This document shows positions 1 to 64,000 of a DNA stretch of 64,000 bases, piece after piece. Numbering within the stretch: position 1 is the first letter of the stretch; every line of letters starts with the position of its first letter. The stretch covers positions 96,001 to 160,000 of the IMG/VR virus record IMGVR_UViG_3300045988_162176, one strand, 5' to 3'. The notes under the pieces were generated by a model that was not told where the DNA came from, searched no databases, and saw nothing but the letters and a program-made list of their open reading frames with translations. The translations under genes were made by a program, and so were the position numbers. This DNA is from a virus.

Positions 1-73
1 CATCCAAACGGATAATTACAGGAAAATTCTCAGGAAGATAATTACGATATCTATTCTCGTAAGCACCCTTCAT
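1..73 (-). CDS. 5' end of a gene that runs off the left edge. The N-terminus MKGAYENRYRNYLPENFPVIIRLD resembles Thg1-like (TLP) tRNA 5'-end repair enzymes.
   Basis: ATG at 71-73 on the minus strand, just after the TAA of the upstream gene. Only 24 codons are visible. The Thg1/TLP N-terminal pattern (..LP..xVIIRxDG) is recalled from memory. Confidence 0.3.
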   Translation of the reverse strand, partial: MKGAYENRYRNYLPENFPVIIRLD

Positions 74-89
74 TCTATCGCTTAAAGTT

Positions 90-578
90 TTATACTCCAT
101 TTTCTTTTTCCTTCCTCATTCTAGTAAGGTCTTCAATATATACTGGATAACCATCCTCATCAAAATATGCAAGCTTCTTATAACTCTTTACCCTTTTTTC
201 ATTCTTTTCTTGATAATCAGCATCAATTGTAATATCGGTCTTGTTATTTTTAGGGCAAAAAATTAATGCTACAGGAAGATTTTCCATTTCTACCTGAATA
301 TTTTCTACCTTATTCTCATCGACTGTTTCTGCAAAATAAAAAGTACAAGGAATAAGTTCAATATATTCAATCTTGTAGTCTTCATCTAACTGTTTACGAT
401 AAGCAAAACTTACATTTGCTTCATGGCATTTCTCAATAATTTCTTTTAATTGCTTGTTTGTAAAACAATAATCTCTATATCCCTTTTTAAGAGAACCCAC
501 AACAGAGTCTACAAGAGAAGGAAAATCAGAAGGAATACCAAAAGTTACACTAGAAACAGTCTGCATTTCACCAATCAT
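90..578 (-). CDS. hypothetical protein (162 aa)
   Basis: Uninterrupted ORF with ATG preceded by GAGGATAAGTAAA, ending in TAA. Confidence 0.6.
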   Translation of the reverse strand: MIGEMQTVSSVTFGIPSDFPSLVDSVVGSLKKGYRDYCFTNKQLKEIIEKCHEANVSFAYRKQLDEDYKIEYIELIPCTFYFAETVDENKVENIQVEMENLPVALIFCPKNNKTDITIDADYQEKNEKRVKSYKKLAYFDEDGYPVYIEDLTRMRKEKENGV

Positions 579-583
579 TTTAC

Positions 584-1336
584 TTATCCTCTATTATACA
601 AATCTTCATCAGGATTGTATCTAAATCCTTGTTGATATTTTTCTTCTGCGTCTTGACGTGCTTTTACAGCTTCTTCAAAAGTATCAAAACGTTTGCTTAA
701 TTTAGTTTCTTTATTTACAACTAAAGAAGCTTTCCATTTATTTCGCACTTTATCATAACTTACGCCTTTAACACCAGAAGTATTATTGGTATAAATTTTA
801 CAATGACCAATATTTTGGTAATGTTCTAAAGGTCTTAGGTTTTCTTTTCTGCAATCATAAGGAACGTGGTTTTTATGGTCTACATCTATTTTAGAGTCAG
901 TAATATCTAAAACAAATCTTTTTAAATGTAAACAATGAGGTTGATTATTTTTATAAACAGTTGCAATAGGATATTTTTCTTTATTATACACCCAAACATA
1001 TTCTTTTATTTTATCATAATCTTCTAAATCAAAATAAAAAGGTTCATTTTTAGAAGTATATCCTATCCCATATTCTCCACTTAAATCATATTTGTTTAAT
1101 TTTCTTCTTTTCTTTCCACTTTCAATAGCAGCTTCTTTTTGTAAACAACCACAAGACCTTGTATTACCAGAAGTTAAACTATGTGTTAAAACATCAAATT
1201 CTGTTTTATTTTCACATTGGCATTGTACATGCCATAAATTAGCACGTTTCCGATTTGGACCATGATACTAATAATCACATTTATACAAAACCTTTAAACG
1301 GCCAAAAACATCTCCAACTTTTACTGGCTCTTTCAT
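584..1336 (-). CDS. free-standing HNH endonuclease with a C-terminal AP2 DNA-binding domain (about 250 aa)
   Basis: The ORF-track fragment 584..991 extends upstream through one in-frame TAG (1268-1270) to an ATG at 1334-1336, directly after the PARP TGA. HNH-type DHKNH...N motif. AP2-like SGVKGVSYDKVRNKWKASL...RFDTFEEAVKAR. Confidence 0.7.
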
Positions 1337-2584
1337 TCATCTAATCTCCACTAAATATCGAATAGTTACTTGGTCAGGACGATAGAAAATAATTTCTGGA
1401 TTGCGAAGCATTCCCTTTTCAGGAGAAGCGTAAACACAATGGCAAGGAGGATTCTTTTTCTGAAGCACATCAAAATTAAAATGATAACACTCGGAAGTAT
1501 GTTCATAAACAGTATAAGGATTTCCATAAGCCACTTCAAAAATAGCCATGAATCCAGTATTATTACTTCCTCTTGCCCAGTAAGAACCACTTACACTTGT
1601 ATAACCAATACTCTTTCGAGCTAAAGTGCTAAAATACAATCCATCGCTAAACATCGAACCTGTATAGATAGCATTTGCGGGACGAATCTTCAAACCCATT
1701 TTAAGGATATTAAAGAAATTTTGAGACCTGCTACCATGCCACATAAGTTTAGTGTTTGTAATATTATAATCTTTAATAAAAGAATTAAATGCTTTATTAG
1801 TCTCTAAATTATTAACACTCCATGCTTTTACGAATCTATCAGAATCTCGCCCAAGCATATTTTTAATTCTGGCAACTTCATCCTGAGTGACATCTTCCAT
1901 GGTAATACCCATCTTCTGCAAAATGCTTTCAGAAGCTTTAATTTCAGAATCGGTGTCGGCAATTTTTACCTTGGGCTTATAAACTTGACCAGCCATAGTA
2001 TCAAGCAAGCTTTGTTCCTCAGAAAGCTTTTTGTCGTATTCGGAAGAATCAGAAACAAGACAGTCAGAAACGCGCTTCATCTTACGAGGAACAATAATAA
2101 ACAATTCATTCAAATTCTTGTTAAATTCCTCAACAGACCAGTTTTTGTAGTTCGCTGCAATATAGTCAATCTTTTCCTGAGCAGCATCAATCATAGCCTG
2201 AGTAACAGCTTCAGCACGAACTGAATAAGCAGATTGAATAGTCTTATTAGCATAATCCCAAAGACGTTTAACAATCTCTCTAACAGATAAATTTTGAACC
2301 AAACCAAATTCATCTACCCCGTTAGACTTGTCTTCAACTTTAGAATCAGCAATAACTTCCTGCATCAAATCAGAACGGTCAACATACCCCTTCTTCAATT
2401 TAGAAGAAAGAGTAGAATTCCATTTGGACATAGGATAAGTTTTAGTCTGAGGAGCAGCACCAACACGACCATATTCAGCCGTAAAAGTATCATCTCCATT
2501 TGGACTAATTTTGTAATATTTATTATGTCCAAGGTCTCCAAAATTAGGGTCTACAAAGATTAAATATTTGGGAGTATAATCCAT
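1337..2584 (-). CDS. poly(ADP-ribose) polymerase-like protein with WGR, helical regulatory and PARP catalytic (H-Y-E) domains
   Basis: N-terminal WGR pattern NKYYKI..FTAEYGRVGAAPQTK..KLKKGY. The C-terminus LMWHGSRSQNFFNILKMGLKIRP...YTGSMFSDGLYFS..KSIGYT...FEVAYGNPY is collinear with the PARP1 catalytic core (LLWHGSR..GYMFGKGIYFA..EVALGN). ATG with RBS TAGGAGATGG. Stop is TGA. Confidence 0.85.
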   Translation of the reverse strand: MDYTPKYLIFVDPNFGDLGHNKYYKISPNGDDTFTAEYGRVGAAPQTKTYPMSKWNSTLSSKLKKGYVDRSDLMQEVIADSKVEDKSNGVDEFGLVQNLSVREIVKRLWDYANKTIQSAYSVRAEAVTQAMIDAAQEKIDYIAANYKNWSVEEFNKNLNELFIIVPRKMKRVSDCLVSDSSEYDKKLSEEQSLLDTMAGQVYKPKVKIADTDSEIKASESILQKMGITMEDVTQDEVARIKNMLGRDSDRFVKAWSVNNLETNKAFNSFIKDYNITNTKLMWHGSRSQNFFNILKMGLKIRPANAIYTGSMFSDGLYFSTLARKSIGYTSVSGSYWARGSNNTGFMAIFEVAYGNPYTVYEHTSECYHFNFDVLQKKNPPCHCVYASPEKGMLRNPEIIFYRPDQVTIRYLVEIR

Positions 2585-2600
2585 AATTCCATCTCCTATA

Positions 2601-2638
2601 AGTAAATCTCTATGATTAGATTACCATAGAGATTTACT
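2601..2638. promoter_or_regulatory. perfect 14-bp inverted repeat (AGTAAATCTCTATG-N10-CATAGAGATTTACT) overlapping the promoter of the PARP-like gene; candidate operator or 5'-UTR hairpin
   Basis: The arms at 2601-2614 and 2625-2638 are exact reverse complements. The repeat covers the spacer, the -10 box and the transcription start of the 2618..2646 promoter. Confidence 0.5.
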
Positions 2639-2646
2639 TTTGTCAA
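2618..2646 (-). promoter_or_regulatory. sigma-70/sigma-A-type promoter upstream of the PARP-like gene
   Basis: Minus strand: TTGACA (2646-2641), 17 nt, TAATCT (2623-2618). Confidence 0.5.
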
Positions 2647-2686
2647 GGGTTTATTCAGTTATTTTTTACTAATCCAATCAGTTAAA

Positions 2687-3406
2687 TTACTGGTAGCAGA
2701 AAGTAAGATGAATCTTATAATTCTTGCTTACCTCGTCAAACTTTTTAGCATCTTCAATCGTTTCAGTAAAAACACGAAGAATCATTTCACGAACATCTTC
2801 CCAATCAAGATTACCCTTGCCACACCCAATAAAAGGCATAGCAAGATAAGAAATCTCTTCATTAATACAATACTGAGCAAGGTCTTCAATACAATGTTCA
2901 AGATTAGTCATAGTAATTGGTTCATACTTTTTATTAGCAATCATAAGTAAAAATAAATTCCGAATCCAAATAGCTTCACCAGCACAACGCTCATCAAACT
3001 TATCAGGAATCTTATCAACAATATGATAATAATTGTCAAGTCTACGAGCAGTATCACTACCCAAAGAGAGGTCAGCGGGGATACCATAACAGATATTGTA
3101 ATAAGGAGGAAGGTCGAACATATCCTTATTTACTTCTTCATACTCAACAGGATTTTCATAACTGGTATCATCGACTTCATCATCTTCATCTGCAAATTCA
3201 AGCTCACCATCATGCACCACAAGAGGACAACCACAGTTAGGACAATGCATTACCTTGGGCTTCAAAACAGAAACATAACCAGAAGTAGAAACAATCTTAC
3301 CATCTTCATCAGTAGAAGCAACTGCGGTAGTAAAATAATCCTTATCCTGAGTAGAAGTTACCTTTGGCTCATCGAACTTGTAATTGCGACTAAAAATATT
3401 AGCCAT
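2687..3406 (-). CDS. zinc-ribbon protein with a C-terminal TARG1/C6orf130-like macrodomain (putative ADP-ribosyl hydrolase)
   Basis: CPNCGCP zinc-ribbon motif. C-terminal ICYGIPADLSLGSDTARRL ... YLAMPFIGCGKGNLDWEDVREMILRVF matches the TARG1 signature (..CRMGAGIA.. / ..MPRIGCGLDRLQWENV..EEVF). ATG with RBS AAAAGGAG. Stop is TAA. Confidence 0.7.
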   Translation of the reverse strand: MANIFSRNYKFDEPKVTSTQDKDYFTTAVASTDEDGKIVSTSGYVSVLKPKVMHCPNCGCPLVVHDGELEFADEDDEVDDTSYENPVEYEEVNKDMFDLPPYYNICYGIPADLSLGSDTARRLDNYYHIVDKIPDKFDERCAGEAIWIRNLFLLMIANKKYEPITMTNLEHCIEDLAQYCINEEISYLAMPFIGCGKGNLDWEDVREMILRVFTETIEDAKKFDEVSKNYKIHLTFCYQ

Positions 3407-3426
3407 TTTAAATACTCCTTTTATAA

Positions 3427-3639
3427 TTAATTAATTTTTTCACTAAGTATTCTATCTAATTCTTTTGGACACGCATCAGTCCAATTTGTAATTTGATGAC
3501 CGTCATAAGAACAAACAAAAATCTTTTTCTTCTTTCTGACTTTCAATCCTTCCTCATTATATTCCCAATCAACTGTTCCATCCATATATGGAAAATAAGG
3601 ACAATTAGGAGTACAACCTTTACATTCAATCTTAGCCAT
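3427..3639 (-). CDS. small Cys-rich protein (70 aa)
   Basis: ATG at 3637-3639 with RBS AAGAAAGGA. The track start at 3663 is an alternative-start artefact. Confidence 0.5.
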   Translation of the reverse strand: MAKIECKGCTPNCPYFPYMDGTVDWEYNEEGLKVRKKKKIFVCSYDGHQITNWTDACPKELDRILSEKIN

Positions 3640-3653
3640 CAAATTATCCTTTC

Positions 3654-5417
3654 TTAAAAACAACCCATAGTTTCTCGTACAATAGCTTTCTTAAAATCCT
3701 GTTCCCTTTTCTTTAAGACATCGTTATCTGGAAGAAGATAACAATCCGTATTTCTGGTAGTTACTGTCTTAGAAGGTTCCTTAACAAGATAGAGACCTTC
3801 TTTTGCACGAGTAGTTGCAATATAACTTAAATTCTTTTCCTGAATATTTTGTTCTTTACTGTTCCTAAAATCGTAATTAATTTTAGCTTCATTTAAAACA
3901 AAAACATTCGTAGCTTCAAGACCTTTAGCTTTATGGATGCTACAAAGTCTAACACAATTAGGAGAAGGAGTAGTATTTAACAGTTTATCAATAAAATTAG
4001 AGAATTTAGAAACACTATCAGAAGAGGCATGATTTTCAAGATATCCTTCCAAAATCTCCAACAAAAAGCTCGTATTATCTATCTTAGAATTTGTCTCCGC
4101 TACGGCTTCCAAACGCTCCTCCTCGTGTCCCCCCTCACGGACATTTTTTGAAACGATTTCAAAGAGTTTTTTATTATAATTACTTATTACTTTCTGGAGG
4201 AATTTTTCGAGTGTGCCAACCGAGGTGCATTTGGATGATAAAATCTGTCTTTTAATTGCTCCTACCATATCTTTATCTTCAATAAAAATAGGAGTTCCAT
4301 TTCGAGCTAAATCAAGCACTACCTCGGCAATCCATTTATTCTTTCTTGAAATTACCATGTCTCCTGCTTTAGCATACTCTGAAATTTTATTTTTGTCAAT
4401 AGTTTTAACAAATCCCATTGGAGCATCATCACGAGGAAGAATGGGAATCCCATATTCTCTATTTACTCTACTAAGATGAGATTTAGCACAACGATAACAA
4501 ACAGGTAAATCAAAAGTTTCTACAGGAGCAAACATTTTAGGAATTTGATTAAAAGCTTGAGCATTAGCCCCAGCAAAATTATAGATGGCCTGATGAAAAT
4601 CTCCAATAAAAACATATCTACCTTTGGCTCTTTTAATAAACTTTAAAAAATTTAATTGAATATTAGAAAAATCTTGAACTTCATCACAATAAATATTAGT
4701 ATACAAAGCCCAATAAGGAACTTCCCAATTATCATATTTCAGTTTATTAAAAGTAATCCAAAGCATATCAGTAAAATCAATTATACCTTGAGTTTCAAAC
4801 TGCTGTCTACTTTTAGTATCAAGAATTTTCAAAGTAGAAGTAATTTCACTGATATCAGGTGCAGAATAACCTTCATCCCCATAATATAAAAATAATACAT
4901 GGTCATCAATTAAACGAGACACATCCTTGTTTGAAGACATATCTGTAAGAGTTAATCTACACAAATTATAAAGATTTACATAATTATCTTTTAAGAAAAC
5001 TCGTTTGGCAAATTCAATATATCTACCATAACGCTTTGTAATTTCCTCATCAAGAATCTTATGTGGTTTAAAATTATCCAAATTTACAGTTCTCTTAGAA
5101 CGCTGAGAACCAAAACCTTTTGGTTTTTCTCCTGAATCCTTAGATTCTTGTTCTACATTATAAAGCATAATAGAATATGCTAAAGAATGCATCGTCATAA
5201 CCTTAGTTTTGGGATTCTTAATCTTCTTCTTAAACTCTTCAACTACACTTGCATTAAATGCAATATATAAATCAGAAGTCTTTGAATGCTCAGAAAGCAT
5301 ACAGGCAGTTGTTGACTTACCACTTCCAGCCAAAGCATTTACAAGCATATTACTTTGAGGATTATTAAGAAAAAAATCTAAAATATCTTGCTGATATGTG
5401 CTTGGCTTAAAGCCCAT
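3654..5417 (-). CDS. UvrD/PcrA-like superfamily-1 DNA helicase
   Basis: Walker A ALAGSGKSTT, IGDFHQAIYNFAGA, SIHKAKGLEA, ATTRAKEGLYL. ATG at 5415-5417 with RBS GGAGTTG. Confidence 0.8.
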   Translation of the reverse strand: MGFKPSTYQQDILDFFLNNPQSNMLVNALAGSGKSTTACMLSEHSKTSDLYIAFNASVVEEFKKKIKNPKTKVMTMHSLAYSIMLYNVEQESKDSGEKPKGFGSQRSKRTVNLDNFKPHKILDEEITKRYGRYIEFAKRVFLKDNYVNLYNLCRLTLTDMSSNKDVSRLIDDHVLFLYYGDEGYSAPDISEITSTLKILDTKSRQQFETQGIIDFTDMLWITFNKLKYDNWEVPYWALYTNIYCDEVQDFSNIQLNFLKFIKRAKGRYVFIGDFHQAIYNFAGANAQAFNQIPKMFAPVETFDLPVCYRCAKSHLSRVNREYGIPILPRDDAPMGFVKTIDKNKISEYAKAGDMVISRKNKWIAEVVLDLARNGTPIFIEDKDMVGAIKRQILSSKCTSVGTLEKFLQKVISNYNKKLFEIVSKNVREGGHEEERLEAVAETNSKIDNTSFLLEILEGYLENHASSDSVSKFSNFIDKLLNTTPSPNCVRLCSIHKAKGLEATNVFVLNEAKINYDFRNSKEQNIQEKNLSYIATTRAKEGLYLVKEPSKTVTTRNTDCYLLPDNDVLKKREQDFKKAIVRETMGCF

Positions 5418-5422
5418 TATAA

Positions 5423-6541
5423 TCAACTCCTAACCATTTCATAACATTCATGTAATACTCTTGCAGTCTCAATTACATCTTCAACTGTATTCTGAGTTTC
5501 ATTCATAGAAATTCTAATTTCTCCACGAATATAATCTTCTGGAATCTTCATAGCTTCTAACACAGCAGATGCTTTCATATCTCCTGTATTACACGCACTT
5601 CCTGTCCCTACATAAATTTCCTTTTCATCTAACATAGATTGAAGAATTTCTCCCTCTACATTGTGGAAGCAAACACACACTGTAGAATTAATACTATTTG
5701 CAGGAGAAACAATCATATAATCATTTGGTTCAAATAATTTACCAAGCTCTTCAAGGAAAGCTCTCTTCATTTTCTTACAAGCTAAATCTTTTTCCTTTTG
5801 ATGTGCAACAGCTTTATCAACAGTTAAAGCTAAAGCATGAATATAAGGAATATTTTCAGTACCAGCTCTACGATTACTTTCTTGGTCTCCACCATAAATT
5901 AAAGGCTTAATCTTCTCAACAGGAAAAGTGTCTTTTGAAAAATAAATAAAGCCAACACCTTTAGGAGAATGCACCTTATGTCCACTAAAAGTAGCAATGT
6001 CAGCCATGGGTCTAATATCAATAGGAACATTACCTAAAGCCTGTGTCATATCACAATGATAATACATATTAAGTCTATGAGCTAAATCCATATGTTCACG
6101 AGGATTAAAAATTTCTCCTGTCTCATTATTTACATACATCCAAGACAAAAGAAATCCACTATAATCTCCCCACAGAAAACCCAACTCTTCACTTTTCTCT
6201 GTAACTTTAACAGCATCAATAAGATAATTCTTATCAATAATTATTGACTTGGGATTTTCTGTGATATTATGATGCTCATAAGGACTACATAAACATTTGC
6301 TTTTTTGAGCTAAAGCCCACGCATTACCTTCGCTACTACCAGAAGTAAAATAAATTTCTTCTGGAAAAGCACCTATAACATGTGCAATTTTTGCACGACT
6401 TTCCTCAATTAAATTTTTACTCTTGCGCCCTAAACCATAGGTCGTGCTTGCATTACCCCAATATTCAGCTAAATCATCTTTAATAATATCAATGATTTCA
6501 GGCGATACAAAAGTTGTAGCCGCATGGTCTAAATAAATCAT
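5423..6541 (-). CDS. class-V aminotransferase, NifS/IscS-type cysteine desulfurase
   Basis: IYLDHAATT N-terminus, PLP-lysine motif SGHKVHSPKGVGFIY, catalytic-Cys loop GTGSACNTG. ATGA overlap with the upstream gene. Confidence 0.85.
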   Translation of the reverse strand: MIYLDHAATTFVSPEIIDIIKDDLAEYWGNASTTYGLGRKSKNLIEESRAKIAHVIGAFPEEIYFTSGSSEGNAWALAQKSKCLCSPYEHHNITENPKSIIIDKNYLIDAVKVTEKSEELGFLWGDYSGFLLSWMYVNNETGEIFNPREHMDLAHRLNMYYHCDMTQALGNVPIDIRPMADIATFSGHKVHSPKGVGFIYFSKDTFPVEKIKPLIYGGDQESNRRAGTENIPYIHALALTVDKAVAHQKEKDLACKKMKRAFLEELGKLFEPNDYMIVSPANSINSTVCVCFHNVEGEILQSMLDEKEIYVGTGSACNTGDMKASAVLEAMKIPEDYIRGEIRISMNETQNTVEDVIETARVLHECYEMVRS

Positions 6542-6717
6542 TTATCTACCTCATATTTAATAAAAGCTGTATATCTTTCCCTGCCCAACACTTCATCATA
6601 TCTTGTAGTAAATTGAATATCTATAATATTCTTTTTAGAACTACTAAGCCACATATTTAAACGAGATTCAAAAATTAATGAATCATATGTTAAAATTTTA
6701 ACTCTTTTTTTACTCAT
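6538..6717 (-). CDS. hypothetical protein (59 aa)
   Basis: ATG at 6715-6717 follows the upstream TAA. The stop TGA overlaps the nifS-like ATG. Confidence 0.4.
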   Translation of the reverse strand: MSKKRVKILTYDSLIFESRLNMWLSSSKKNIIDIQFTTRYDEVLGRERYTAFIKYEVDK

Positions 6718-6718
6718 A

Positions 6719-7315
6719 TTAATCCCACAAATCAAAGAAAATTGGCTTCATCATATCTAAAGCTTTTTCAATTTCAGATTGCCTATACTTGTCAATTTCA
6801 GCATCTTCTTGATAGTACTGTTCTTTTTCTTCTTCGGGAATCTTATTTGCCCATCCATCATACTTTTCAAGGACGGAGTTTTTCTTAGGACAAGTCTCTT
6901 CAGTAGAATTACGAATATGAGTTGCAATTTCTTTCAAGTAATCTTCCCATGCCTTACATTGAGCCTCTTCTGCGATTTTATATTCTTCGTCAGAATTAAA
7001 CTTTTCTCTTGTAAGCTCTCTCCAATCACGATATTCTCGTTTACCCGTTTGACGAGTTTTATCAAAATCAATCATTGGGTAGCCAACGTGAGTCTTAGCT
7101 AATTCTTCTAACATTTCAGGAATTACCTGTTGAAACCAACCATCAAAATTCCAAATATCCCTATTACACCAACTCTTAAAAGCTCTATCTTTTCTCTGCT
7201 TGTGTACAGGATAAAGGTCTTTTAAATTTTTTGGATGCAAAAAAGGTAATCCTTTATAAGATTTATTTAAATAACTTAAATTAAGCCAACTATAATTCTT
7301 TTTACTCATCATCAT
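6719..7315 (-). CDS. hypothetical protein (about 196 aa)
   Basis: Uninterrupted ORF with three tandem ATGs after AAGGTGA. The exact start is uncertain. Confidence 0.5.
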   Translation of the reverse strand: MMMSKKNYSWLNLSYLNKSYKGLPFLHPKNLKDLYPVHKQRKDRAFKSWCNRDIWNFDGWFQQVIPEMLEELAKTHVGYPMIDFDKTRQTGKREYRDWRELTREKFNSDEEYKIAEEAQCKAWEDYLKEIATHIRNSTEETCPKKNSVLEKYDGWANKIPEEEKEQYYQEDAEIDKYRQSEIEKALDMMKPIFFDLWD

Positions 7316-7565
7316 TCACCTTATAGAATTCACAAAAATCCGAGTAACTACCATAATCTACATTATAAACTCCTTCTGGAGTAACATGACAATTATAATA
7401 ATAACTCTTAAACCCTTTGTTGTCAATATATTTTTTAATAAGCTTAAAACATTCTGGATATTGAGCATTAAGAATAATATCAGTTCCCTTTTCTTCTACA
7501 CGACCAAGAGGAATAACAACCTTATTACCCTTTTCATAATGGTAAGCATTAACTTGACAAATCAT
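7302..7565 (-). CDS. hypothetical protein (87 aa)
   Basis: ORF with ATGA coupling to the upstream gene. Confidence 0.5.
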   Translation of the reverse strand: MICQVNAYHYEKGNKVVIPLGRVEEKGTDIILNAQYPECFKLIKKYIDNKGFKSYYYNCHVTPEGVYNVDYGSYSDFCEFYKVNDDE

Positions 7566-7822
7566 TTTACATACACCTCAAATTCTCCATCTAAACATTT
7601 TCCGTTTAACCCATACACGAATCTAAACTCTTCATTGGTTAATTCAATAGATTCTACAAATTCAACAATTTTCTTTTTTTGATTCTTAAAAGGATTAATA
7701 GTCCTAACAACATTAACTTTCACAAGACATTCTTGGTCATAACAATCATTTGCTAAATCATGAACCCATACTGTATGACCATCCATGTTTTGTAAAGCAA
7801 TGAAACTTAATTTTCTCTTCAT
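7562..7822 (-). CDS. hypothetical protein (86 aa)
   Basis: ATG at 7820-7822 lies 7 nt after a GGAG. First gene behind the 7863..7892 promoter. Confidence 0.5.
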   Translation of the reverse strand: MKRKLSFIALQNMDGHTVWVHDLANDCYDQECLVKVNVVRTINPFKNQKKKIVEFVESIELTNEEFRFVYGLNGKCLDGEFEVYVK

Positions 7823-7862
7823 AATATGCTCCATATTAAAAATATGATTCTACCTATGAATA

Positions 7863-7892
7863 AGTATATCATAAGTAGAACCATATTGTCAA
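7863..7892 (-). promoter_or_regulatory. sigma-70/sigma-A-type promoter
   Basis: Minus strand: TTGACA (7892-7887), 18 nt, TATACT (7868-7863). Confidence 0.6.
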
Positions 7893-7899
7893 TACTTTT

Positions 7900-8451
7900 T
7901 TAAATTATTTTTTGAACAAATTCAAGGTAATCATGCGCCCATTGCTTAAGATTATCTAAATCAGAACTGTTGCTTATAACAGTGTCATAATGAAATTGTC
8001 CAACATCTCTATCAGCAGGATTGGAAATAATTGGTCTTACATTTGCATTAACTACAAGTATTGTAGCACAAGGTAATCCAGTAGCTTTTTTATTTTGCTC
8101 AATAAAAGTTTTAATATTTTCAGGTTCACGAATGTTTACAAAAAATAACCAATTTTTTTTATCCAACATCTTATTATCAATAACAGTATTAATTTGGTCA
8201 AATACTTTTTGATTAGGAGAATTGTTCCATTTTTGCAAAGCCATTTTTAAATCGTAAAGAAATTCTCTGTCCTTTTCTTCTTTACGACCATTCCATCCCG
8301 CAAATTGAGCTACAGCTTTTACCCAATCAACCGTAGATAATTCTAAAACATCCCAATCAGGGACATCTTCTAAAATTTCTTGACAAAGTTTTACAAAAGT
8401 AGACTTTCCACTTCCACCAGAACCATTAATTATAATTATTCTTGAGTCCAT
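7900..8451 (-). CDS. P-loop kinase (possible deoxynucleotide kinase)
   Basis: Walker A IIIINGSGGSGKSTF. Overlaps the 3' end of the ThyX-like gene by 16 nt. Confidence 0.45.
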   Translation of the reverse strand: MDSRIIIINGSGGSGKSTFVKLCQEILEDVPDWDVLELSTVDWVKAVAQFAGWNGRKEEKDREFLYDLKMALQKWNNSPNQKVFDQINTVIDNKMLDKKNWLFFVNIREPENIKTFIEQNKKATGLPCATILVVNANVRPIISNPADRDVGQFHYDTVISNSSDLDNLKQWAHDYLEFVQKII

Positions 8452-9212
8452 AATTTATCCCTTAATTCTTCACGAGTAGGATATCTACCACAACACTTGT
8501 CACCCTCTGGACACCAAAGAAGATACTGACAATGAGGAACAAGTTCTTTAGCAAATACAGGATTAATCCCTGCAATTTGTCTCTTCATTTCAACAGCAAT
8601 CTTGCGGATGGGCTCTTGAGCGCGAGAGCATAAACGCTTGTGCATAAATGTAATCAAAGCTTCGGGAGTAAAGCCAATCGCTAAAGTAGTATTAGTAGCT
8701 CTGGGCAAAACAAAGTTTGCATCTTCTACTGCGGAATGAACATCAATGCCATTTTCAGTAAGAATATCACGAATAAGTCTACGAGTAGTATCAATATTAC
8801 TCATAAGATTTTGATACAAAGCCTTTGCCTTTTCATTATTCTCAATATTCTTAGGAATAATATAAGTAAAATTATTCTTATCAATATATCTGAATGAAGC
8901 AAGATTCTTAACAATCTCATCAGGACTTACACGAGGAATTGCTTCAATCAAATCCATATAAGCATACTTATCCTGATTGTCATAACGCACTCCAATTTCA
9001 GAACGCATCATTTGTTCCAAAGTACCTCTATCAGCTTCAATTTCAAACTTAATATATTCACAACGAGAACCGCTCATGTGACCTGAATTTTCACAATTTT
9101 TACCTACTCGTTCAGCATACTTCTTATCTGTGCCATAACATTCACAAGCAAATTCGCCATGGTTTTTGTATAAATCCTCTAATACAGTAGGATTCAAAAG
9201 GGTTACTTTCAT
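8436..9212 (-). CDS. ThyX-family (flavin-dependent thymidylate synthase-like) protein with a divergent active-site motif
   Basis: Overall ThyX layout (..SGHMSG.. , ..LPRATNTTL.. , ..RLCSRAQEPIRKIA..). The canonical RHRxxSxxxxSxR motif reads MRSEIGVRYDNQDKY here. Confidence 0.55.
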   Translation of the reverse strand: MKVTLLNPTVLEDLYKNHGEFACECYGTDKKYAERVGKNCENSGHMSGSRCEYIKFEIEADRGTLEQMMRSEIGVRYDNQDKYAYMDLIEAIPRVSPDEIVKNLASFRYIDKNNFTYIIPKNIENNEKAKALYQNLMSNIDTTRRLIRDILTENGIDVHSAVEDANFVLPRATNTTLAIGFTPEALITFMHKRLCSRAQEPIRKIAVEMKRQIAGINPVFAKELVPHCQYLLWCPEGDKCCGRYPTREELRDKLWTQE

Positions 9213-9831
9213 TACGCCTTTATTTCTCCCTTCTTATATTTCATCAAAAGATATTCAAAAGTTTGTGGAGTATAATTCATATAAGGCATCATACATCCAA
9301 CATTAATCATCTGTGCTCTATTTAAATATTCATTCCCATTGGAATTTTCTAATTTTTCTTTTGCCATTTTAGCAAAATCTTCTACTAAATCTTGTTCTTT
9401 GGTTATATGAGTATGCCCATGTAAATGGAAACAATTATCATAGCAAGACCCATAATAAGAAAGAATTGCAAAATGAGAAAGAATTACCCTATAAGGTTTA
9501 CCATCAACCGTCTCAGTTACTTCTTTGTAATGACAAATTTCAGCTAATTTTTTCTTGACTCCTGTAGAATATTGTTTACAGTCATGATTGCCTTGAATTA
9601 AATGAATATTGCCATGTAATTTATTTAAAATACGAATCCACTCATCTGACCCTGCTTTCCACAGAAAATCTCCAAGTACATATACATGGTCTGCATTTGA
9701 AACTTGTTTATTCCAACGGGAGATTAAATCAAGCTCCATTTCTTCTGTCGTATCATATGGGCGGTGGTCAAAATTAATGATGTTCGTTAAGTATGTCCAA
9801 AGTGTAAATCACTTATATAAAAATTGGACAT
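9212..9831 (-). CDS. calcineurin-like metallophosphoesterase, with its reading frame broken by an apparent -1 frameshift near 9788-9792
   Basis: ATG at 9829-9831 gives MSNFYISDLHFGHT, followed by TAA. The -1 frame continues LTNIINFDHRPYDTTEEM...VYVLGDF...GNHD...GHTH. Confidence 0.6.
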
Positions 9832-10119
9832 TTAAACATCACTCTCCCTTCCGTTTAAACACTCCAAACTATGACCAATAGAAGATTCTTGAAACCATCT
9901 TGTATCAACAACAGAAGGGTCTCCCAAAAACTCTACATAATTTTCTGTGACTTTAGTAATTACGCCAGCTAAAACATAGTCTTTATGAACAGGATTATAA
10001 CTAAGAATTGTCCAGTTTAACAAATTAGTCTGAGCATCTTCAATATTATCTTCTTTTCTATTAAATTTATATTTTAACCATTTAGTAGATTCTAAAGGTT
10101 GCCTCTTTGGAAGATTCAT
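9832..10119 (-). CDS. hypothetical protein (95 aa)
   Basis: ORF with ATGA coupling upstream. Its TAA is directly followed by the phosphoesterase ATG. Confidence 0.5.
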   Translation of the reverse strand: MNLPKRQPLESTKWLKYKFNRKEDNIEDAQTNLLNWTILSYNPVHKDYVLAGVITKVTENYVEFLGDPSVVDTRWFQESSIGHSLECLNGRESDV

Positions 10120-10385
10120 TTCTTTTCCTCTTCTTTCCAGAAAGGATAATTGTCTCTCTTATTACAAGACTTTTCATACTTGCAAGAAAGTTCACATCCA
10201 TAAACCATATAATGATTATTACAATGTTTACAAACAACTTGCCCATAAGGGTTGCTTAATTCTTCAAGCATTAATACAGCTTTCTTGCCATCTATCCCAT
10301 CAACACATTTTCTTTCATGTAAATAGCATTCATCTAAAGACTAAAATTCTTTGCCACACTTTTCACAACAATATTTAATTGTCAT
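10116..10385 (-). CDS. small C2H2-type zinc-finger protein (89 aa)
   Basis: MTIKYCCEKCGKEF[TAG]SLDECYLHERKC... is visible only when TAG 10341-10343 is read through. ATGA overlaps at both ends. Confidence 0.5.
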
Positions 10386-10813
10386 TTTCCATAAACCTCT
10401 TTCTTTTTATTTTCATAAAATTTATTCAATCCTACGAGGTCAGGAGCATTTGGACAAGTCTTTTCTCCCATAAATGTAGTAATCATATTAATAATTCTCT
10501 TATTTCTATGATTAAGAGGAGGAATAGAAGTGTCCTTAAAAGCAGAACAAATAAAACGAGAACAAATTTCAGGTCGTACTTCATAAATTTGGCACTTATT
10601 TTCCTTGTTCAAAAAAGGACAAATATCTTTAAAATCTTTATCTAAAGCAGTATTACGATTAATCATTTTTACTTCTGGATGCTGACCAAGATACTTTTTA
10701 ATCTTCTTTACTTCTGCATCACTTACACAAAGAATTGCAGAACAACAAGCTCCACATCCAGAACATTTACCATCAATAGTATGGTCTACTTTGTTAGCCA
10801 TCTGACTATTCAT
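10382..10813 (-). CDS. YkgJ-type CxxCxxCC cysteine-cluster (putative Fe-S/Zn) protein
   Basis: GKCSGCGACCS motif. ATG at 10811-10813 overlaps the NADAR TGA. Confidence 0.55.
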   Translation of the reverse strand: MNSQMANKVDHTIDGKCSGCGACCSAILCVSDAEVKKIKKYLGQHPEVKMINRNTALDKDFKDICPFLNKENKCQIYEVRPEICSRFICSAFKDTSIPPLNHRNKRIINMITTFMGEKTCPNAPDLVGLNKFYENKKKEVYGK

Positions 10814-11244
10814 TCCCAAATTCCTCCATCAAGTTCTTCTCTTACGCGCATAAGAATCTTTCCCAACTTATTTTCTCCAACACCATTACAAACTCCCCAT
10901 GTAGTATCATGCCACCAATTTCCCTCTTCAAGATAAGCGTCACCAGTATCAAGAAGAAGTTTGGCGAGATTTTTGTTCTGAGTAAACTTTGCACTAACAA
11001 TTTCATACATTGTTTGCTCTTTAATATCTTCCCAATCTTTACGCAACTTACAATTCCTACCAGCAAGTTTTGCTTGAGCTGGATTCATGGAAATATATTT
11101 TTTACGGTCTTCATCTCTAATTTCTTTTTGTGCTTGAAACGCTGCTTCTGAATTTTGATAGGTTAAACCATTATAACTTACAGGTGCATTATAAAAATTA
11201 GAGAGAAAAGCATAAGCATCAAAAAAATCTTTAATTGCTTCCAT
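10810..11244 (-). CDS. NADAR (YbiA/DUF1768) family protein
   Basis: FLSNFYNAPVSYNGLTYQNSEAAFQAQK signature and WG..NxLGxxLMxVR C-terminus. Confidence 0.75.
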   Translation of the reverse strand: MEAIKDFFDAYAFLSNFYNAPVSYNGLTYQNSEAAFQAQKEIRDEDRKKYISMNPAQAKLAGRNCKLRKDWEDIKEQTMYEIVSAKFTQNKNLAKLLLDTGDAYLEEGNWWHDTTWGVCNGVGENKLGKILMRVREELDGGIWE

Positions 11245-11245
11245 A

Positions 11246-13234
11246 TTATTTTCCAATCCTTTTCAAAAATTCTTCTTCGTTCATAATAGGAGTCCCTAAT
11301 TCAGCAGCTTTCTTAGCTTTAGATGAACCACTATTAGCTTCATTAGTCAAAAGATAATCAGTCTTTTTAGAAACAGAACCAGTTAACTTTCCACAATTAT
11401 CGGTAATAATCTTTTCAATCTCAGAACGTTTCATAGTATTAAAAGCACCTGTAACACAGAAAGTCTTACCATTGATAAACTCATTTGTTGCAATCTGTGC
11501 TGGCTTATCCCAAACCAAATTTAATTCAAAAATAAGATTTGCAAATAAAGCATCTTCACTATTCCACCAATTATGCAAAGCCTGAGACATTGTTTCACCA
11601 AAACCATCTAAAGTGGAGAAATCGAAATTGTCAAAATCAAGAGCTTCCTCAAAAGCCATCCAATCTCCGCTAAAATGCTTGCTGATTTCTTTTGCTGCTG
11701 TCTTTCCAATATTAGGGATACTTAAAGAAACAAGAAGATTCTCCAACTTAACATGGCGAGATTTCTCAATAGATTCAATCAGCTTATTATAAGATTTTTC
11801 GCCAAAACCATCCATCTCAACAATTTCGTCTTTATGTTTATCAAGATGATAAAGGTCCGCATACTTCTTAACATACCCAGCATCAATAAATCTCTTAAGA
11901 GTAGCTTCACTTAATCCATCAATATTCATAGCGGGTTTAGATACAAACTGGACAAACTTAGCCAAATTCTTCTCAGGACAATCAGGATTTTCACACCAAA
12001 GAGTCTCTGCACCAGATTCAGAAATTTTAGTTGTAGTAGGCTTTCCACAGCACGGACAAGTCTTTGGAATTTCAAAATCTGCATCCCCATCTTTGTTACA
12101 AAAAACAATCTGTGGAATAATCATGTTCATTTTTGCAACTTTGACAGTGCAATTCTTTCTTAAGCCAAGAGATTTAATAATACTAATATTATGAACAGAT
12201 GCACGGCTTACTTCTGTATTATCAAGAATAACAGATTCAAACACAGCCGTAGGAGTAATTACACCAGTCTTACCAACTGCCCATTCGATATCTCTAAGAA
12301 TAGTTCCAGCAGTTTCATCTTCATACTTAAAAGCCAAGCTCTTACGAAAGTGATGACCTGTATTACCAAGGCTTAAACCATAAGCAATATCATCATAAGT
12401 AATAACACAGCCATCAACAGGAATACCCTTTTTATCGGCGACTTGCTTTAACTTAACAGTTAAGTCTTCAATTCCATAAAGGTCAACATTATCGCCATTG
12501 AAGTAATCACAAGGGACAATAGTAAAACCCAAAGACTGAAGCTTATTCATATCTTTTCTAAAACTACCCGTAGTTCCCTCAATCAAACTCCAAACCCAAA
12601 ATTGAAGACCTCTTTGAGACGTAATTTTATTGTCCAAAAGAGAAAGACTACCACTTGCAAGGTTGCGCTGAGTAGCATATTGCTCTCCATCAGGAAGTTC
12701 TGCATTAATTCGTTCAAAATCGTCTCTAAGAATAATACATTCACCATCAATAACAAGGGTTTCTTTGCTATCAATAGTTAAAGGAAGATTCTTCATAACC
12801 TTGGCATTATTAAGAACATCTGTTCCTTCAACACCATTACCACGAGTCTCAGCAGAAACCAACTTACCATTTTCATATCTGACAGACATAGTAAGGCCAT
12901 CTAACTTCATAGATAAAGCTACTTCTTTATTTTCTGCAAAATTAAGCAAATCTTGACAACTTTTTGTTTTGTCAAGCGAAAGCATTAAATGGTCATGTTT
13001 AACTTTCTTAAGTGAATCAACAGTTTCATAACCAACTGTCTGAGTAGGAGAGTTTGAAAGAACAAAATTTTCTTCTGTCTCTAACTCTCGCAATTCATCA
13101 AATAGCTTATCATATTCTGCATCAGAAACAAGAGATTCACTATAATTATAATACTTGTCTCGATACTTATTTAACAGACTTGTTAATTCTTTGATACGTG
13201 CAATATTTTCGTAATTATTCATATTAATCTCCAT
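11246..13234 (-). CDS. ligA: NAD+-dependent DNA ligase
   Basis: 662-aa uninterrupted ORF. Adenylation motif KLDGL, Cys4 zinc finger CPCCG..C.NPDC, HhH region and C-terminal BRCT. Confidence 0.95.
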   Translation of the reverse strand: MEINMNNYENIARIKELTSLLNKYRDKYYNYSESLVSDAEYDKLFDELRELETEENFVLSNSPTQTVGYETVDSLKKVKHDHLMLSLDKTKSCQDLLNFAENKEVALSMKLDGLTMSVRYENGKLVSAETRGNGVEGTDVLNNAKVMKNLPLTIDSKETLVIDGECIILRDDFERINAELPDGEQYATQRNLASGSLSLLDNKITSQRGLQFWVWSLIEGTTGSFRKDMNKLQSLGFTIVPCDYFNGDNVDLYGIEDLTVKLKQVADKKGIPVDGCVITYDDIAYGLSLGNTGHHFRKSLAFKYEDETAGTILRDIEWAVGKTGVITPTAVFESVILDNTEVSRASVHNISIIKSLGLRKNCTVKVAKMNMIIPQIVFCNKDGDADFEIPKTCPCCGKPTTTKISESGAETLWCENPDCPEKNLAKFVQFVSKPAMNIDGLSEATLKRFIDAGYVKKYADLYHLDKHKDEIVEMDGFGEKSYNKLIESIEKSRHVKLENLLVSLSIPNIGKTAAKEISKHFSGDWMAFEEALDFDNFDFSTLDGFGETMSQALHNWWNSEDALFANLIFELNLVWDKPAQIATNEFINGKTFCVTGAFNTMKRSEIEKIITDNCGKLTGSVSKKTDYLLTNEANSGSSKAKKAAELGTPIMNEEEFLKRIGK

Positions 13235-13311
13235 TACTTATCAATTGTGCTCATAATAAGCAAAGACAAAACAACCCAAACAACTAAAATACCAATTACT
13301 GCATAACTCAT
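13234..13311 (-). CDS. 25-aa hydrophobic peptide (MSYAVIGILVVWVVLSLLIMSTIDK)
   Basis: ATGA overlap with the upstream gene and TAATG overlap with ligA. It has a single predicted TM helix. The ORF is very short, so the call is tentative. Confidence 0.3.
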   Translation of the reverse strand: MSYAVIGILVVWVVLSLLIMSTIDK

Positions 13312-14126
13312 AATTTAGTCTCACTTTCTAAAAGTTCTTTCTTTAAAGAATGTGCAATCATTGTTCTTTGTACGTTTCTTAAAACTTCTGCAACAGTTTC
13401 ATCTGTTTCAAAGTGCTTATCCATTACATATTCATCTACCAAAACTTCTGCTTCTGTAATTAAAGATTCAGCCACCCTTTTAGCATCTTCAATAGGAAGT
13501 GGAGTAGTTTTGTAGCTAATTAACAACTCAGGGTCTTTAGGAATTAAAATCTTTTCATAAGGTTCGTCTTCTGCTACATATCTTTTGATAAAATCTGATA
13601 GCCTTGCAATATGATGGAAATCTTTCAATCCATATCCATAATTGTCAATGTCAAACTCATTATGAGGGGCTCTATGAAACATCTGTTTATACTTAGTCTT
13701 CATATTACCATACATTGTCAGCACAGCTTTGTGAGGACAATAATGGGCAATAGCCTCTCTGTTTTTAATAATAGCTCCAAGCCACATGCCAGCGTATTCT
13801 GGATTTAGCTCAAAATATTTAGTAAACAATGTTTCTGTGAAATTAATATTTTGTTTTAAATAACTGTTGAACATTAAACGAATATCTTTGACTTCAAGCT
13901 TTCCTCCATCTTCATCTCGATGATATTCTTTACTAACCCAATCTTTAGAATCAACGATGTCATCAAAATGAGGAAGTACAATTGCTTTTGTATCAACGTC
14001 AGAATGTTCGGTAGCCATACCATAATTATTACTACCGTAAACAAACACTCCAACAATATTATATCCAAGTTCTTTCAAAAATTCATAATCAGAATGAACT
14101 CTATTATTAACCTTTTCCAAATTCAT
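13308..14126 (-). CDS. Pol-beta-superfamily nucleotidyltransferase
   Basis: VYGSNNYGMATEHSDVDTKAIV (GS..SDxD) motif. ATG with RBS AAGAAAGG. Confidence 0.6.
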   Translation of the reverse strand: MNLEKVNNRVHSDYEFLKELGYNIVGVFVYGSNNYGMATEHSDVDTKAIVLPHFDDIVDSKDWVSKEYHRDEDGGKLEVKDIRLMFNSYLKQNINFTETLFTKYFELNPEYAGMWLGAIIKNREAIAHYCPHKAVLTMYGNMKTKYKQMFHRAPHNEFDIDNYGYGLKDFHHIARLSDFIKRYVAEDEPYEKILIPKDPELLISYKTTPLPIEDAKRVAESLITEAEVLVDEYVMDKHFETDETVAEVLRNVQRTMIAHSLKKELLESETKL

Positions 14127-14193
14127 AGTTTACCTTTCTTAATGTAAATAAGTAACAATATACAAATATATTTATCTATTCTTACTTAATGAC

Positions 14194-14222
14194 ATTATAA
14201 CAGACTGATTCTATCTTGTCAA
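14194..14222 (-). promoter_or_regulatory. consensus sigma-70/sigma-A promoter
   Basis: Minus strand: TTGACA (14222-14217), 17 nt, TATAAT (14199-14194). Confidence 0.7.
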
Positions 14223-14244
14223 GAAGTTATAATGAAAAAGTTGA

Positions 14245-14263
14245 AAGGGGTATAATACCCCTT
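14245..14263 (-). terminator. stem-loop (AAGGGGTA-TAA-TACCCCTT) at the end of the nrd operon
   Basis: 8-bp GC-rich stem overlapping the TAA of 14262..14471, followed on the minus strand by TCAACTTTTTC. Confidence 0.5.
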
Positions 14264-14471
14264 AATCAACTTCTATCTTTTTGTACTTCCCACAATTACA
14301 TTCCCCAGCATAATTTTGCTCTCTAAAAGATTTACAAATACAAACCATATCGTCAGTTTGAGTCAGCCCACATGGACAATATTGTTTTCCATATTTCTCT
14401 TTCATTTCTGCAAGTTGGCGATTTGTTTCATCTACTAAGTCTTTATCATCGTTTAATACAATTTTTAACAT
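14262..14471 (-). CDS. small Cys-rich protein (CPC..CxC..CxC pattern)
   Basis: 69-aa ORF translationally coupled (TAATG) to the nrdG-like gene. The cysteine spacing is reminiscent of ferredoxin-thioredoxin-reductase catalytic chains. Confidence 0.4.
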   Translation of the reverse strand: MLKIVLNDDKDLVDETNRQLAEMKEKYGKQYCPCGLTQTDDMVCICKSFREQNYAGECNCGKYKKIEVD

Positions 14472-17143: not shown

Positions 17144-17686
17144 TTATGTAACATCTAAATTACCATCAGATAATTTAACTAACTAATTATATAATTTCAT
17201 ACATCCCCAAGTATCTGCATCTGCACTATGAGCATTTTCTAAAGTATAACCAAAATGTTCAAGCAAAGTTCCTAATTTATAATTAGCTACTTCTGTTTTT
17301 GGAATTAAACGTTTTGCATTTTCCAAAGTGCAACAAACAGCATGATTTGGAATTGGAATGTGATATCTTTTTAGTTCTGGATAGATTACTTTATTAGCAT
17401 CATATTTGGCATTATGAAAAATCCAAACACTGTCTGTCATATAATCTTTTATTTCTTCCCATACTTCATCAAAGGTGGGGCAATTTTTTATAGTATCATA
17501 GGTAATACCATTGACTTTAGATGCTCCACTTTCAATCTATGCCTATGGATTTACTAATATATATTTATCAGCAATTTTCTTGCCATTTTCATATACTAAA
17601 ATTGCAATACTAACAATTCTATTCTCTTTAAATCCAGTTGTTTCAGTATCACCTATAACGAGCTTATTATAATTAGGGAGAGCCAT
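17144..17686 (-). CDS. DnaQ-like DEDDh 3'-5' exonuclease
   Basis: Exo I GDTETTG, Exo II FHNAKYD, Exo III HSADADT. Requires read-through of TAGs at 17543-17545, 17537-17539 and 17183-17185. The true stop is TAA at 17144-17146. Confidence 0.75.
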
Positions 17687-35099: not shown

Positions 35100-35100
35100 G

Positions 35101-62966: not shown

Positions 62967-62991
62967 ATATTAACCTCCTTATTTTATTTTA

Positions 62992-63020
62992 AAAGCTGCA
63001 CCAAAAAATGATGCAGCTTT
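62992..63020 (-). terminator. intergenic stem-loop (AAAGCTGCA-N11-TGCAGCTTT); attenuator or RNA-stability element
   Basis: 9-bp perfect inverted repeat between the 63036..63752 and 62316..62966 genes. The tail is only weakly U-rich, so it may not be a full terminator. Confidence 0.35.
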
Positions 63021-63035
63021 ATATTTCTTTTTATA

Positions 63036-63752
63036 TTAAGATTCTTTACTTTCCAGCTCCTTAGCACCTTCAGTATTAATTTTATCAATAACTGCCTTTT
63101 CAAGTGCGTTGGTAAGTTTTTTATTTTCTTCTGAAGTAGCTCCATAAAGCTCTTTAAGATGTTCAACCATTTCCTTGCTTTCTTTAAGAGCATCAATCAT
63201 CATTCTATTTTTATCAGCGACTTTCTGCAATTCCTTATAATCAAGATTTTCAAAAATATCACTAAAATTATTAAGATTGTTAAAATTAATAGCATCTCTT
63301 AACATCTCAACAAATTCATCATAATCCTTTTTGCAAAAACCTAAAATAAATTCAGAAAACAAAGGATACAACAAATCATAAGAAGTATAAGTACACAAAG
63401 ATTTTTCAGAAACATCTACCATTGCATACTGTCCAAGCAATACATCAAAGAACAAATGTCTCTTCATAATAATACTCTTAAGAGAAGCATCTTCAACATC
63501 TTCATTCTCAATAGTAAACACTAAAATCATAATGAGCTTCATCTTATCAAGAATTGGGAGATAACTTCTAATCGTCATCTTATCTCCAAGCTGACCAAAT
63601 TCTTCTGGGGTAATTTCACCGTCCAAGAACTTTTTCGTCTGTCGAATTAACTCAGAAACGGTAATTTTCTCAACTTTTTCCTCATTCTTCTGTTCATTTT
63701 CGGTCAATTTGACCTGTTTTTCACCAGATAAAAGTTTGTTTTCATCTGCCAT
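63036..63752 (-). CDS. hypothetical protein (238 aa), upstream of the chaperone-position and tape-measure genes
   Basis: Uninterrupted ORF. ATG with RBS AAAAGGAGAGAATAAAA. The stop is TAA. Confidence 0.55.
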   Translation of the reverse strand: MADENKLLSGEKQVKLTENEQKNEEKVEKITVSELIRQTKKFLDGEITPEEFGQLGDKMTIRSYLPILDKMKLIMILVFTIENEDVEDASLKSIIMKRHLFFDVLLGQYAMVDVSEKSLCTYTSYDLLYPLFSEFILGFCKKDYDEFVEMLRDAINFNNLNNFSDIFENLDYKELQKVADKNRMMIDALKESKEMVEHLKELYGATSEENKKLTNALEKAVIDKINTEGAKELESKES

Positions 63753-63767
63753 TTTTATTCTCTCCTT

Positions 63768-64000
63768 TTAATCCTTTTCCTTCTTTATTGGAAATTTACT
63801 TTTATTTTTAGGCTGTGATGGGTCATAACCTAAAATCGAATAATCTATTTCTTCTCCATTTTCGAGAAGATTTTTCAGCTATATTAAATCTGTCTAGGAC
63901 AAATCTCGCATCGGAATTATTTTGTAGCGATTTTGGAAAATACGATAATCTGAAAAAACAGAGGGATTATATTTTTCCCGCATTACTTTCTTCGCTAATT
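63768..64000 (-). CDS. 3' end of a structural gene entering from the right edge
   Basis: Open minus-strand frame ..MREKYNPSVFSDYRIFQNRYKIIPMRDLS[TAG]TDLI[TAG]LKNLLENGEEIDYSILGYDPSQPKNKSKFPIKKEKD, ending at TAA 63768-63770. Confidence 0.4.

Follow-up and report, generated by a model that had tools for sequence, protein, structure and literature searches.

TAG reads as a sense codon, almost certainly for glutamine, in a ~214-kb human gut phage with an SPbeta-type replication module

Introduction

Do the many TAG triplets that interrupt the genes of IMG/VR virus record IMGVR_UViG_3300045988_162176 end translation, or are they read as an amino acid, and if so, as which one? We addressed this question in positions 96,001 to 160,000 of that record, a stretch of 64,000 nucleotides (nt) whose full length is referred to here as the window. 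An earlier note, made from the letters alone, had proposed that TAG is a sense codon throughout this phage, with TAA and TGA as its genuine stops. Exact protein matches placed the window in contig ena:ERZ27296301:k119_55060 (214,176 bp), as the reverse complement of its ~33.9-97.9 kb, and the source, a tailed phage of ~214 kb, comes from the human gut. Metaproteomics has demonstrated reassignment of TAG to glutamine (Gln) in crAss-like phages (PMC9523058), and such recoding has also been described for the phAss-1 group (PMC10607447) and for jumbo phages (PMC13037316).

The explanation that best covers the evidence as a whole, and in which we have high confidence, is that TAG encodes Gln (translation table 15), that TAA and TGA are the sole terminators, and that a phage transfer RNA with anticodon CUA, tRNA(CUA), would supply the decoding and with it a timing of late genes.

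Results

In-frame TAG codons and translation starts

The window has a G+C content of 33%, with C strongly exceeding G on the plus strand, and the minus strand is the coding strand for essentially all of its genes. Tiling with TAA and TGA as the sole stops gave 54 minus-strand open reading frames (ORFs), which together covered 93% of the window and ended in TAA (43 ORFs) or TGA (11 ORFs). Across their 19,827 codons TAA and TGA never occurred in frame (0 each) and TAG occurred 108 times, 86 of these within 40864-63983; each off-frame of the same ORFs held ~910 TAA, ~818 TGA and 362 TAG. The in-frame TAG pattern is real and lies far beyond chance, and the complete lack of in-frame TAA and TGA bears out the proposal that the change is specific to TAG. 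The 12 positions on which the earlier note had based its case all read on the minus strand as it had quoted them, namely the TAGs and their peptide contexts in NrdD, dnaE, dnaB and the single-stranded DNA-binding protein (SSB) (Table 1), the region 17537-17545 of a DEDDh exonuclease, in which two TAGs were found, and the gene ends at 1337 (TGA), 11246 (TAA), 18151 (TAA), 36951 (TGA, after DDDDDIPF) and 46714 (TAA).

Gene calls under table 15 and table 11 were compared by the share of the minus strand covered by ORFs of at least 100 amino acids (aa). For the whole window this share was 0.789 with code 11 and 0.942 with code 15, and for the late region it climbed from 0.637 to 0.961. Reading TGA as sense (code 4) gave 0.803 and reading TAA as sense gave 0.843 for the whole window; neither rescued the late region, where coverage stayed at 0.640 and 0.685, respectively. 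The genes publicly called for the source contig use table 15 and are already translated across TAG, with products of 2469, 1864, 1150 and 642 aa.

Signals for the start of translation followed the same pattern. A Shine-Dalgarno-like motif stood ahead of 38 of the 54 code-15 starts, and ahead of only 6 of the 100 first start codons that follow an internal TAG, which is at the level of the background (10.5%) and agrees with the observation that no ribosome-binding site follows TAG. Five of the 108 TAGs are doubtful: three lie in an insertion in dnaE that is described below, and two, at 24310 and 18127, are codon 2 of their ORFs, whose true start may lie downstream. The number of sense TAGs is for these reasons ~103-105, still above the 90 counted in the earlier note. 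TAG-specific reassignment is supported by these ORF statistics, by homology, by codon comparison and by a tRNA(CUA) in all relatives examined.

The amino acid inserted at TAG

A codon-level map was built through tblastn alignments of the window with 24 IMG/VR loci. The codons found opposite window TAGs were CAA (319), TAG (192) and CAG (66), followed by TCA (48) (raw counts). Tallied per site, 40 of the 77 TAG sites covered by relatives had CAA or CAG in at least one of them, and 11 had TAG only. The substitution profile at TAG sites was best fitted by Gln, by 117 log-likelihood units over glutamate. In the reverse direction, TAG codons of the relatives fell on 6.5% of the sites where the window has Gln, a share that did not exceed 1.2% for any other residue.

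The closest comparison came from L051, a relative with 92% nucleotide identity, which keeps nine of the early-gene TAGs of the window. The sole changes that involve TAG in those early genes are a window TAG at 30012 that is CAG in L051, and a window CAG at 31662 and CAA at 33599 that are both TAG in L051. Because L051 exchanges TAG with CAG and CAA only, TAG appears to act as a synonymous Gln codon, and its meaning is almost certainly glutamine. The earlier note had named Gln as the usual meaning, which these data bear out, and had left the amino acid open; comparison with relatives identifies it: CAA and CAG dominate at the TAG positions of homologues, the very comparison that the note had suggested.

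Homology across TAG codons

Recognisable homology was expected on both sides of the TAGs, and it was found: Pfam domains span the TAGs in NrdD (NRDD, residues 90-631), the DEDDh exonuclease (RNase_T), DnaE (PHP domain), DnaB (N-domain), RecD2 and RecJ. Residues 4-634 of NrdD align with the NrdD of Thermotoga maritima (PDB 4coi, E=1e-153), and the alignments to SPbeta proteins that contain TAGs (YorF, YorI, YorK and YorL) pass through them uninterrupted.

Distribution of TAG along the window

Use of TAG was strongly graded. Its share of all TAG, CAA and CAG codons was 1.6% in 1-14965, 7.5% in 14966-40860 (replication) and 22.8% in 40861-64000 (tape-measure and tail), or 0.4, 2.6 and 11.6 TAGs per 1000 codons in these three regions. 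The claim that TAG is a sense codon "throughout" the phage needs qualification in that the codon is almost absent from 1-14965, sparse among replication genes and dense in the tail region. The TAG-poor block lies immediately upstream of a tRNA array in the direction of transcription. In total 41% of the window ORFs contained TAG, and in 19 of the 54 a TAG lay downstream of the first ATG; within ORFs, TAGs had a mild bias towards the first and the last tenth.

Intervening sequences in dnaE and dnaB

The fragmentation of dnaE and dnaB is due to intervening sequences and not to TAG. On the minus strand dnaE is interrupted twice (25719-27296). The first interruption, of ~230 nt (27296 to ~27065), follows directly on the end of exon 1 (...LRKSIA) and is similar to introns that relatives carry in their tRNA genes (nhmmer E=8e-5). 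The other interruption (26919-25719) is intron-like and 1201 nt long. Between them lies a short exon of 48 aa (KKNPKAY...GYGFN) that matches residues 803-849 of SPbeta YorL. The TAGs at 25730, 25754 and 25766 are probably non-coding, since they fall within the 1201-nt insertion. The dnaB gene is split within its Walker A codons (GVGK/T) by an insert of 277 nt without an ORF (34136-34412). Its boundaries are those expected of a group I intron, with U as the last base of the 5' exon and G as that of the insert; L051 lacks the insert and has an uninterrupted dnaB ORF. Searches with Rfam gave no group I intron match for the dnaE and dnaB intervening sequences at E-value thresholds, and nothing over the window at gathering thresholds.

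Related elements were also noted elsewhere. The GIY-YIG ORF borne by the dnaE insertion has no TAG, versus six in the HNH gene of the tail module (47920-48885), and a 499-aa GIY-YIG gene just upstream of the window (L025 8486-9985) has seven. A UvrD-like helicase (window 3654-5417) has 587 aa, versus 899 aa in the close relatives L032 and L033 (6231-8930), and the longer form gives a faint match to Intein_splicing; the two observations together suggest that an intein is present in some members of the lineage and absent from others.

The suppressor tRNA locus

ARAGORN found no tRNA in the window and none in 24 tail-centred relatives. The tRNA array of the source contig starts ~2.3 kb past window position 1, on the same strand, with dispersed genes for Leu-UAA, Pro-UGG, Arg-CCU, Val-UAC and Ser-GCU (L030). 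Relatives are 90-95% identical in that stretch and the same array continues in them; in all nine relatives examined, a tRNA(CUA) stood directly after tRNA-Arg(UCU). The gene is intact in four of the nine and split in five (Table 1). The split genes carry an insert of 218-219 nt in the anticodon loop, and are missed by standard ARAGORN; excision at the U/...G/ junction yields a canonical tRNA(CUA) of 74-75 nt. Along its entire length the insert of L043 matched the group I intron model of Rfam with 34.9 bits (E=2e-7 in a small search), short of the gathering score of 50, and the inserts look like group I introns.

The suppressor tRNAs comprise at least four dissimilar sequence types at this one locus, and the type in L038 and L041 has a long variable arm. 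A U1.U72 mismatch, G73 and an encoded CCA are common to most types, and the first two of these features presumably resemble identity elements of Escherichia coli tRNA-Gln. When the suppressor tRNAs were compared with the phage's other tRNAs to find their nearest paralogue, identities were 65-71%, the background level.

Decoding most likely depends on an amber-suppressor tRNA (anticodon CUA) encoded by the phage. Its gene would lie in the array that starts ~2.3 kb beyond window position 1, downstream of the nearly TAG-free block, and is predicted directly 3' of tRNA-Arg(UCU) at ~113-115 kb of the source contig. Genes that the host can translate in its standard code, being free of TAG, would be expressed first; the tRNA array with the suppressor would follow, and as the suppressor tRNA accumulated, the TAG-rich tail genes and other late genes would become translatable. 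Because these genes would need the suppressor to have accumulated, recoding would act as a timer of late genes.

The tRNA array of this lineage is rich in intervening sequences. Rfam tRNA matches to several other genes of the array span 120-157 nt, and so include insertions, in L035, L038, L041, L043 and L044 (for example L035 16366-16522 and 17025-17157, and L043 12285-12406), and the intron option of ARAGORN found tRNA genes with inserts of 50-102 nt in L047. A Thg1-like tRNA-His guanylyltransferase gene (L030 12485-13309) adjoins the array just outside the window.

Points against and alternative explanations

Several observations weigh against the explanation by a phage tRNA(CUA) that inserts Gln late in infection. 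Distant homologues often lack Gln opposite TAG: the residues of T. maritima NrdD facing the three window TAGs are Q, A and S, and those of the SPbeta proteins are E, K, E, D, K and V, although at identities of only 25-37% such residues are uninformative; they add no support. Neither a tRNA (ARAGORN) nor a release factor or aminoacyl-tRNA synthetase (Pfam annotations of the window genes) was found within the 64-kb window, so that the earlier note's suggested search for a phage-encoded release factor 2 or synthetase came back empty there. We infer a tRNA(CUA) in the source phage itself because all nine relatives carry one and the array of the source contig begins as theirs do. The suppressor tRNAs are of at least four dissimilar types, one with a long variable arm, and their sequences do not reveal charging with Gln. 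Finally, the replication genes contain TAGs too, which makes a strict division into early genes in the standard code and late genes in the recoded one too simple.

A very unlikely alternative is that TAG is sense and specifies another residue (serine, leucine, tyrosine, glutamate, lysine or pyrrolysine), or a residue that depends on the tRNA allele of the strain. The diversity of tRNA(CUA) types at one locus, with the variable arm of L038 and L041 recalling class II tRNAs, would suit this view, as would TCA (serine), the commonest non-Gln codon opposite window TAGs; the name "tRNA-Pyl" given to these genes is the default label of ARAGORN for a CUA anticodon. The substitution profile, however, places Gln ahead by the margin given above, the closest relative exchanges TAG with Gln codons only, and most of the tRNA types have the mismatched first pair and G73. 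The window has some 12-14 TAG sites in common with the relatives of each tRNA type, which requires the types to agree in their decoding; a comparison of TAG sites between relatives for decoding that differs with tRNA type had too few sites to discriminate. Pyrrolysine was rejected as a candidate, since no pylS or pylBCD families are among the Pfam matches of the window genes and conservation at TAG sites resembles that of Gln and not that of lysine.

Less probable still is that the host supplies the recoding, through a sense TAG or a suppressor tRNA of its own, and that no phage-driven switch exists. The window encodes no suppression machinery, and PMC13037316 speculates that host suppressor tRNAs may serve phages that have none. 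If the host decoded TAG freely, the graded use of the codon and its near-absence from one 15-kb block would not be expected; moreover, nine of nine relatives have their own tRNA(CUA), and the hosts of the closest cultured phages, Enterocloster and Bacillus, are genera with the standard code. On these grounds we rejected decoding by the host.

That TAG truly ends translation, in which case the late genes would be fragmented pseudogenes, assembly or sequencing artefacts or products of rare read-through, is effectively refuted: the fragments are formally ORFs under table 11 and three TAGs do lie in probably non-coding sequence (25730, 25754 and 25766), yet the in-frame excess is confined to TAG with no TAA or TGA in 19,827 codons, TAG positions are kept in independent assemblies from different samples, homology continues across TAGs with no ribosome-binding site after them, and inefficient read-through could not pass 22 TAGs in one 1150-aa ORF.

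Genes of the window, source and relatives

The genes that carry TAG, the intervening sequence of dnaE, the TAG-poor block and the tRNA(CUA) genes of relatives are collected in Table 1.

Table 1. Positions of the TAG-bearing genes and related features in the window, and of tRNA(CUA) genes in relatives
Feature	Coordinates	Strand	Remarks
TAG-poor block	1..14965	-	2 TAGs in 4724 codons; PARP-like, UvrD, ThyX, NAD-ligase, NrdG and others
NrdD	14970..16898	-	TAGs 16791, 16578, 16383; aligns end to end with 4coi
DEDDh exonuclease	17144..17686	-	Pfam RNase_T at residues 10-166; 3 TAGs
RecD2-like helicase	21835..24315	-	4 TAGs (codon 2 and three in the C-terminal tail); 4/4 are TAG in L051
dnaE insertion, 1201 nt	25719..26919	-	GIY-YIG ORF 25862-26779; TAGs 25730, 25754, 25766; absent from L051
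dnaE (yorL-like) exon 1	27297..29738	-	PHP-domain TAG 29613; frame ends at TAA 27297-27299
RecJ-like exonuclease (yorK homologue)	29772..31811	-	4 TAGs; 30012 is CAG in L051; window CAG 31662 is TAG in L051
dnaB (yorI-like) exon 1	34407..35132	-	N-domain TAG 35034
YorF-like SSB	36951..37898	-	TAG 37812 (also TAG in L051); ends DDDDDIPF, then TGA
Tail protein, 408 aa	40864..42090	-	phrog_1887; 9 TAGs, 5 of them CAA/CAG in L051
Tail-module protein, 335 aa	42102..43109	-	9 TAGs; in L051 5 are CAA and 2 are TAG
Tail protein, 1150 aa	43125..46577	-	22 TAGs (19 per 1000 codons)
Late protein, 354 aa	46714..47778	-	3 TAGs; TAA end at 46714
HNH homing-endonuclease-like gene in tail module	47920..48885	-	phrog_559; 6 TAGs
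Tail protein, 1864 aa	48949..54543	-	Weak PhageMin_Tail match; 18 TAGs; ends TGA
Tape-measure-like protein, 2469 aa	54893..62302	-	Pfam PhageMin_Tail; 13 TAGs; ends TAA
Late protein, 216 aa	62316..62966	-	4 TAGs
Intact tRNA(CUA), 4 relatives	L035 17335-17409; L036 16860-16930; L039 18549-18623; L045 18875-18949		
Split tRNA(CUA), 5 relatives	L038 ~18463-18767; L041 ~16768-17072; L043 18181-18474; L044 19435-19727; L047 8586-8879		

Pfam matches in the window also include YomU_Tube and YorF; in a PHROGs search, seven of nine late or flanking proteins had no match. Auxiliary genes of an unusual kind were observed as well, encoding a PARP/WGR-domain protein, a T4-type RNA ligase and a UppS-like prenyltransferase (window 1337-2584, 18950-20308 and 39189-39848, respectively).

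Other copies occur in human gut assemblies, including one Hadza sample, and logan:SRR1930145_56 (26.3 kb) is locally 100% identical to the source contig. One relative contig was binned in the metagenome-assembled genome "uncultured Clostridium sp. UMGS1616", and a host among the Clostridia is plausible. IMG/VR relatives, on contigs of up to 221 kb, share 43-78% aa identity in a tail protein. Among GenBank phages, megablast queries of 22 kb and 24 kb taken from the window gave no near match; by DnaE (~37% aa identity) the closest cultured phages are Enterocloster phages CB457P1 and PMBT24 and the SPbeta-like phages of Bacillus.

Discussion

Reassignment of TAG to Gln in phages is already well documented, and the phage described here is a further example. 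The features that define such recoding and can be tested in the DNA were all found, with one exception: the suppressor tRNA has its place beyond the window, and we observed it in relatives alone. Recoding in gut phages affects late genes for structure and lysis, is variable among replication genes and leaves 26-71% of genes with in-frame stops (bioRxiv 10.1101/2021.08.26.457843). The window shares with code-15 gut phages (crAss-like, Lak and the Jade, Sapphire, Agate, Garnet, Amethyst and Topaz groups) the concentration of TAG in structural and late genes and its variable use in replication genes, the TAA and TGA stops and the gut source, and its 41% of ORFs with TAG falls inside the reported range; a phage tRNA(CUA), as in those groups, is encoded by relatives.

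It also differs from them. No release factor 2 or aminoacyl-tRNA synthetase was found in these 64 kb, and the replication module is SPbeta-like, unlike that of crAss or Lak phages. With the large Jade and Sapphire clades, whose size range includes ~214 kb, the phage agrees only in genome size, gut origin and likely Firmicutes host; the terminase gene lies outside the window. The integrases of the recoded Garnet and Topaz prophages are reported to be free of TAG, whereas a Phage_integrase-family gene on the source contig upstream of the window (L025 7236-8234), within the structural region, has three.

Alternatively coded jumbo phages, as PMC13037316 describes them, are likewise above 200 kb and more densely coding under code 15; they have a suppressor tRNA of CTA anticodon, and 77% of them have intronic sequences in tRNA genes. 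A suppressor gene that is itself split by an intron (five of nine relatives) and several unrelated alleles at its locus are features that the available text of that paper does not describe.

This polymorphic and often intron-split suppressor locus of the relatives is the sole part of our results with potential novelty. It might be a hypervariable hotspot, with a self-splicing group I intron that would form a second gate on the timing of the switch to code 15 were its splicing slow or regulated, or with alleles that insert different amino acids. We consider this reading as a whole unlikely. If it were true, split genes would help to explain why suppressor tRNAs have been missed by standard scans in many recoded phages.

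The replication module (window 29772-37898, minus strand) encodes an SSB-like YorF, a Sak4-like AAA_24 protein, DnaB, YorJ, RecJ and a DnaE-type polymerase, in the gene order of SPbeta: yorF-yorG-yorH-yorI(DnaB)-yorJ-yorK(RecJ)-yorL(DnaE-type polymerase). Identity to the SPbeta proteins is only 25-37% aa (YorF, YorG, YorI, YorJ and YorK by tblastn, and YorL), which points to shared ancestry of the module and not to membership of the same genus. SPbeta uses the standard code; it, PMBT24 and CB457P1 have genomes of 97-134 kb, whereas the phage here is ~214 kb, TAG-recoded and distant in sequence.

In E. coli, the amber suppressor supE, a tRNA-Gln(CUA), places Gln at UAG. It has a weak or mismatched 1:72 pair and G73 in common with most of the phage alleles. 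The phage tRNAs differ from it in having no clear kinship to any tRNA-Gln, the best match (67-69%) being at background level.

Descriptions of the mechanism and of the regulatory role proposed for it date from 2014-2022, and no new question is opened by this case. In practice, table-11 gene calls shatter the tail module into dozens of fragments, and table 15 is needed to annotate it. To the list of phages that read TAG as Gln, the source of this window adds a large gut phage, probably one that infects Clostridia, with a replication module of the SPbeta type.

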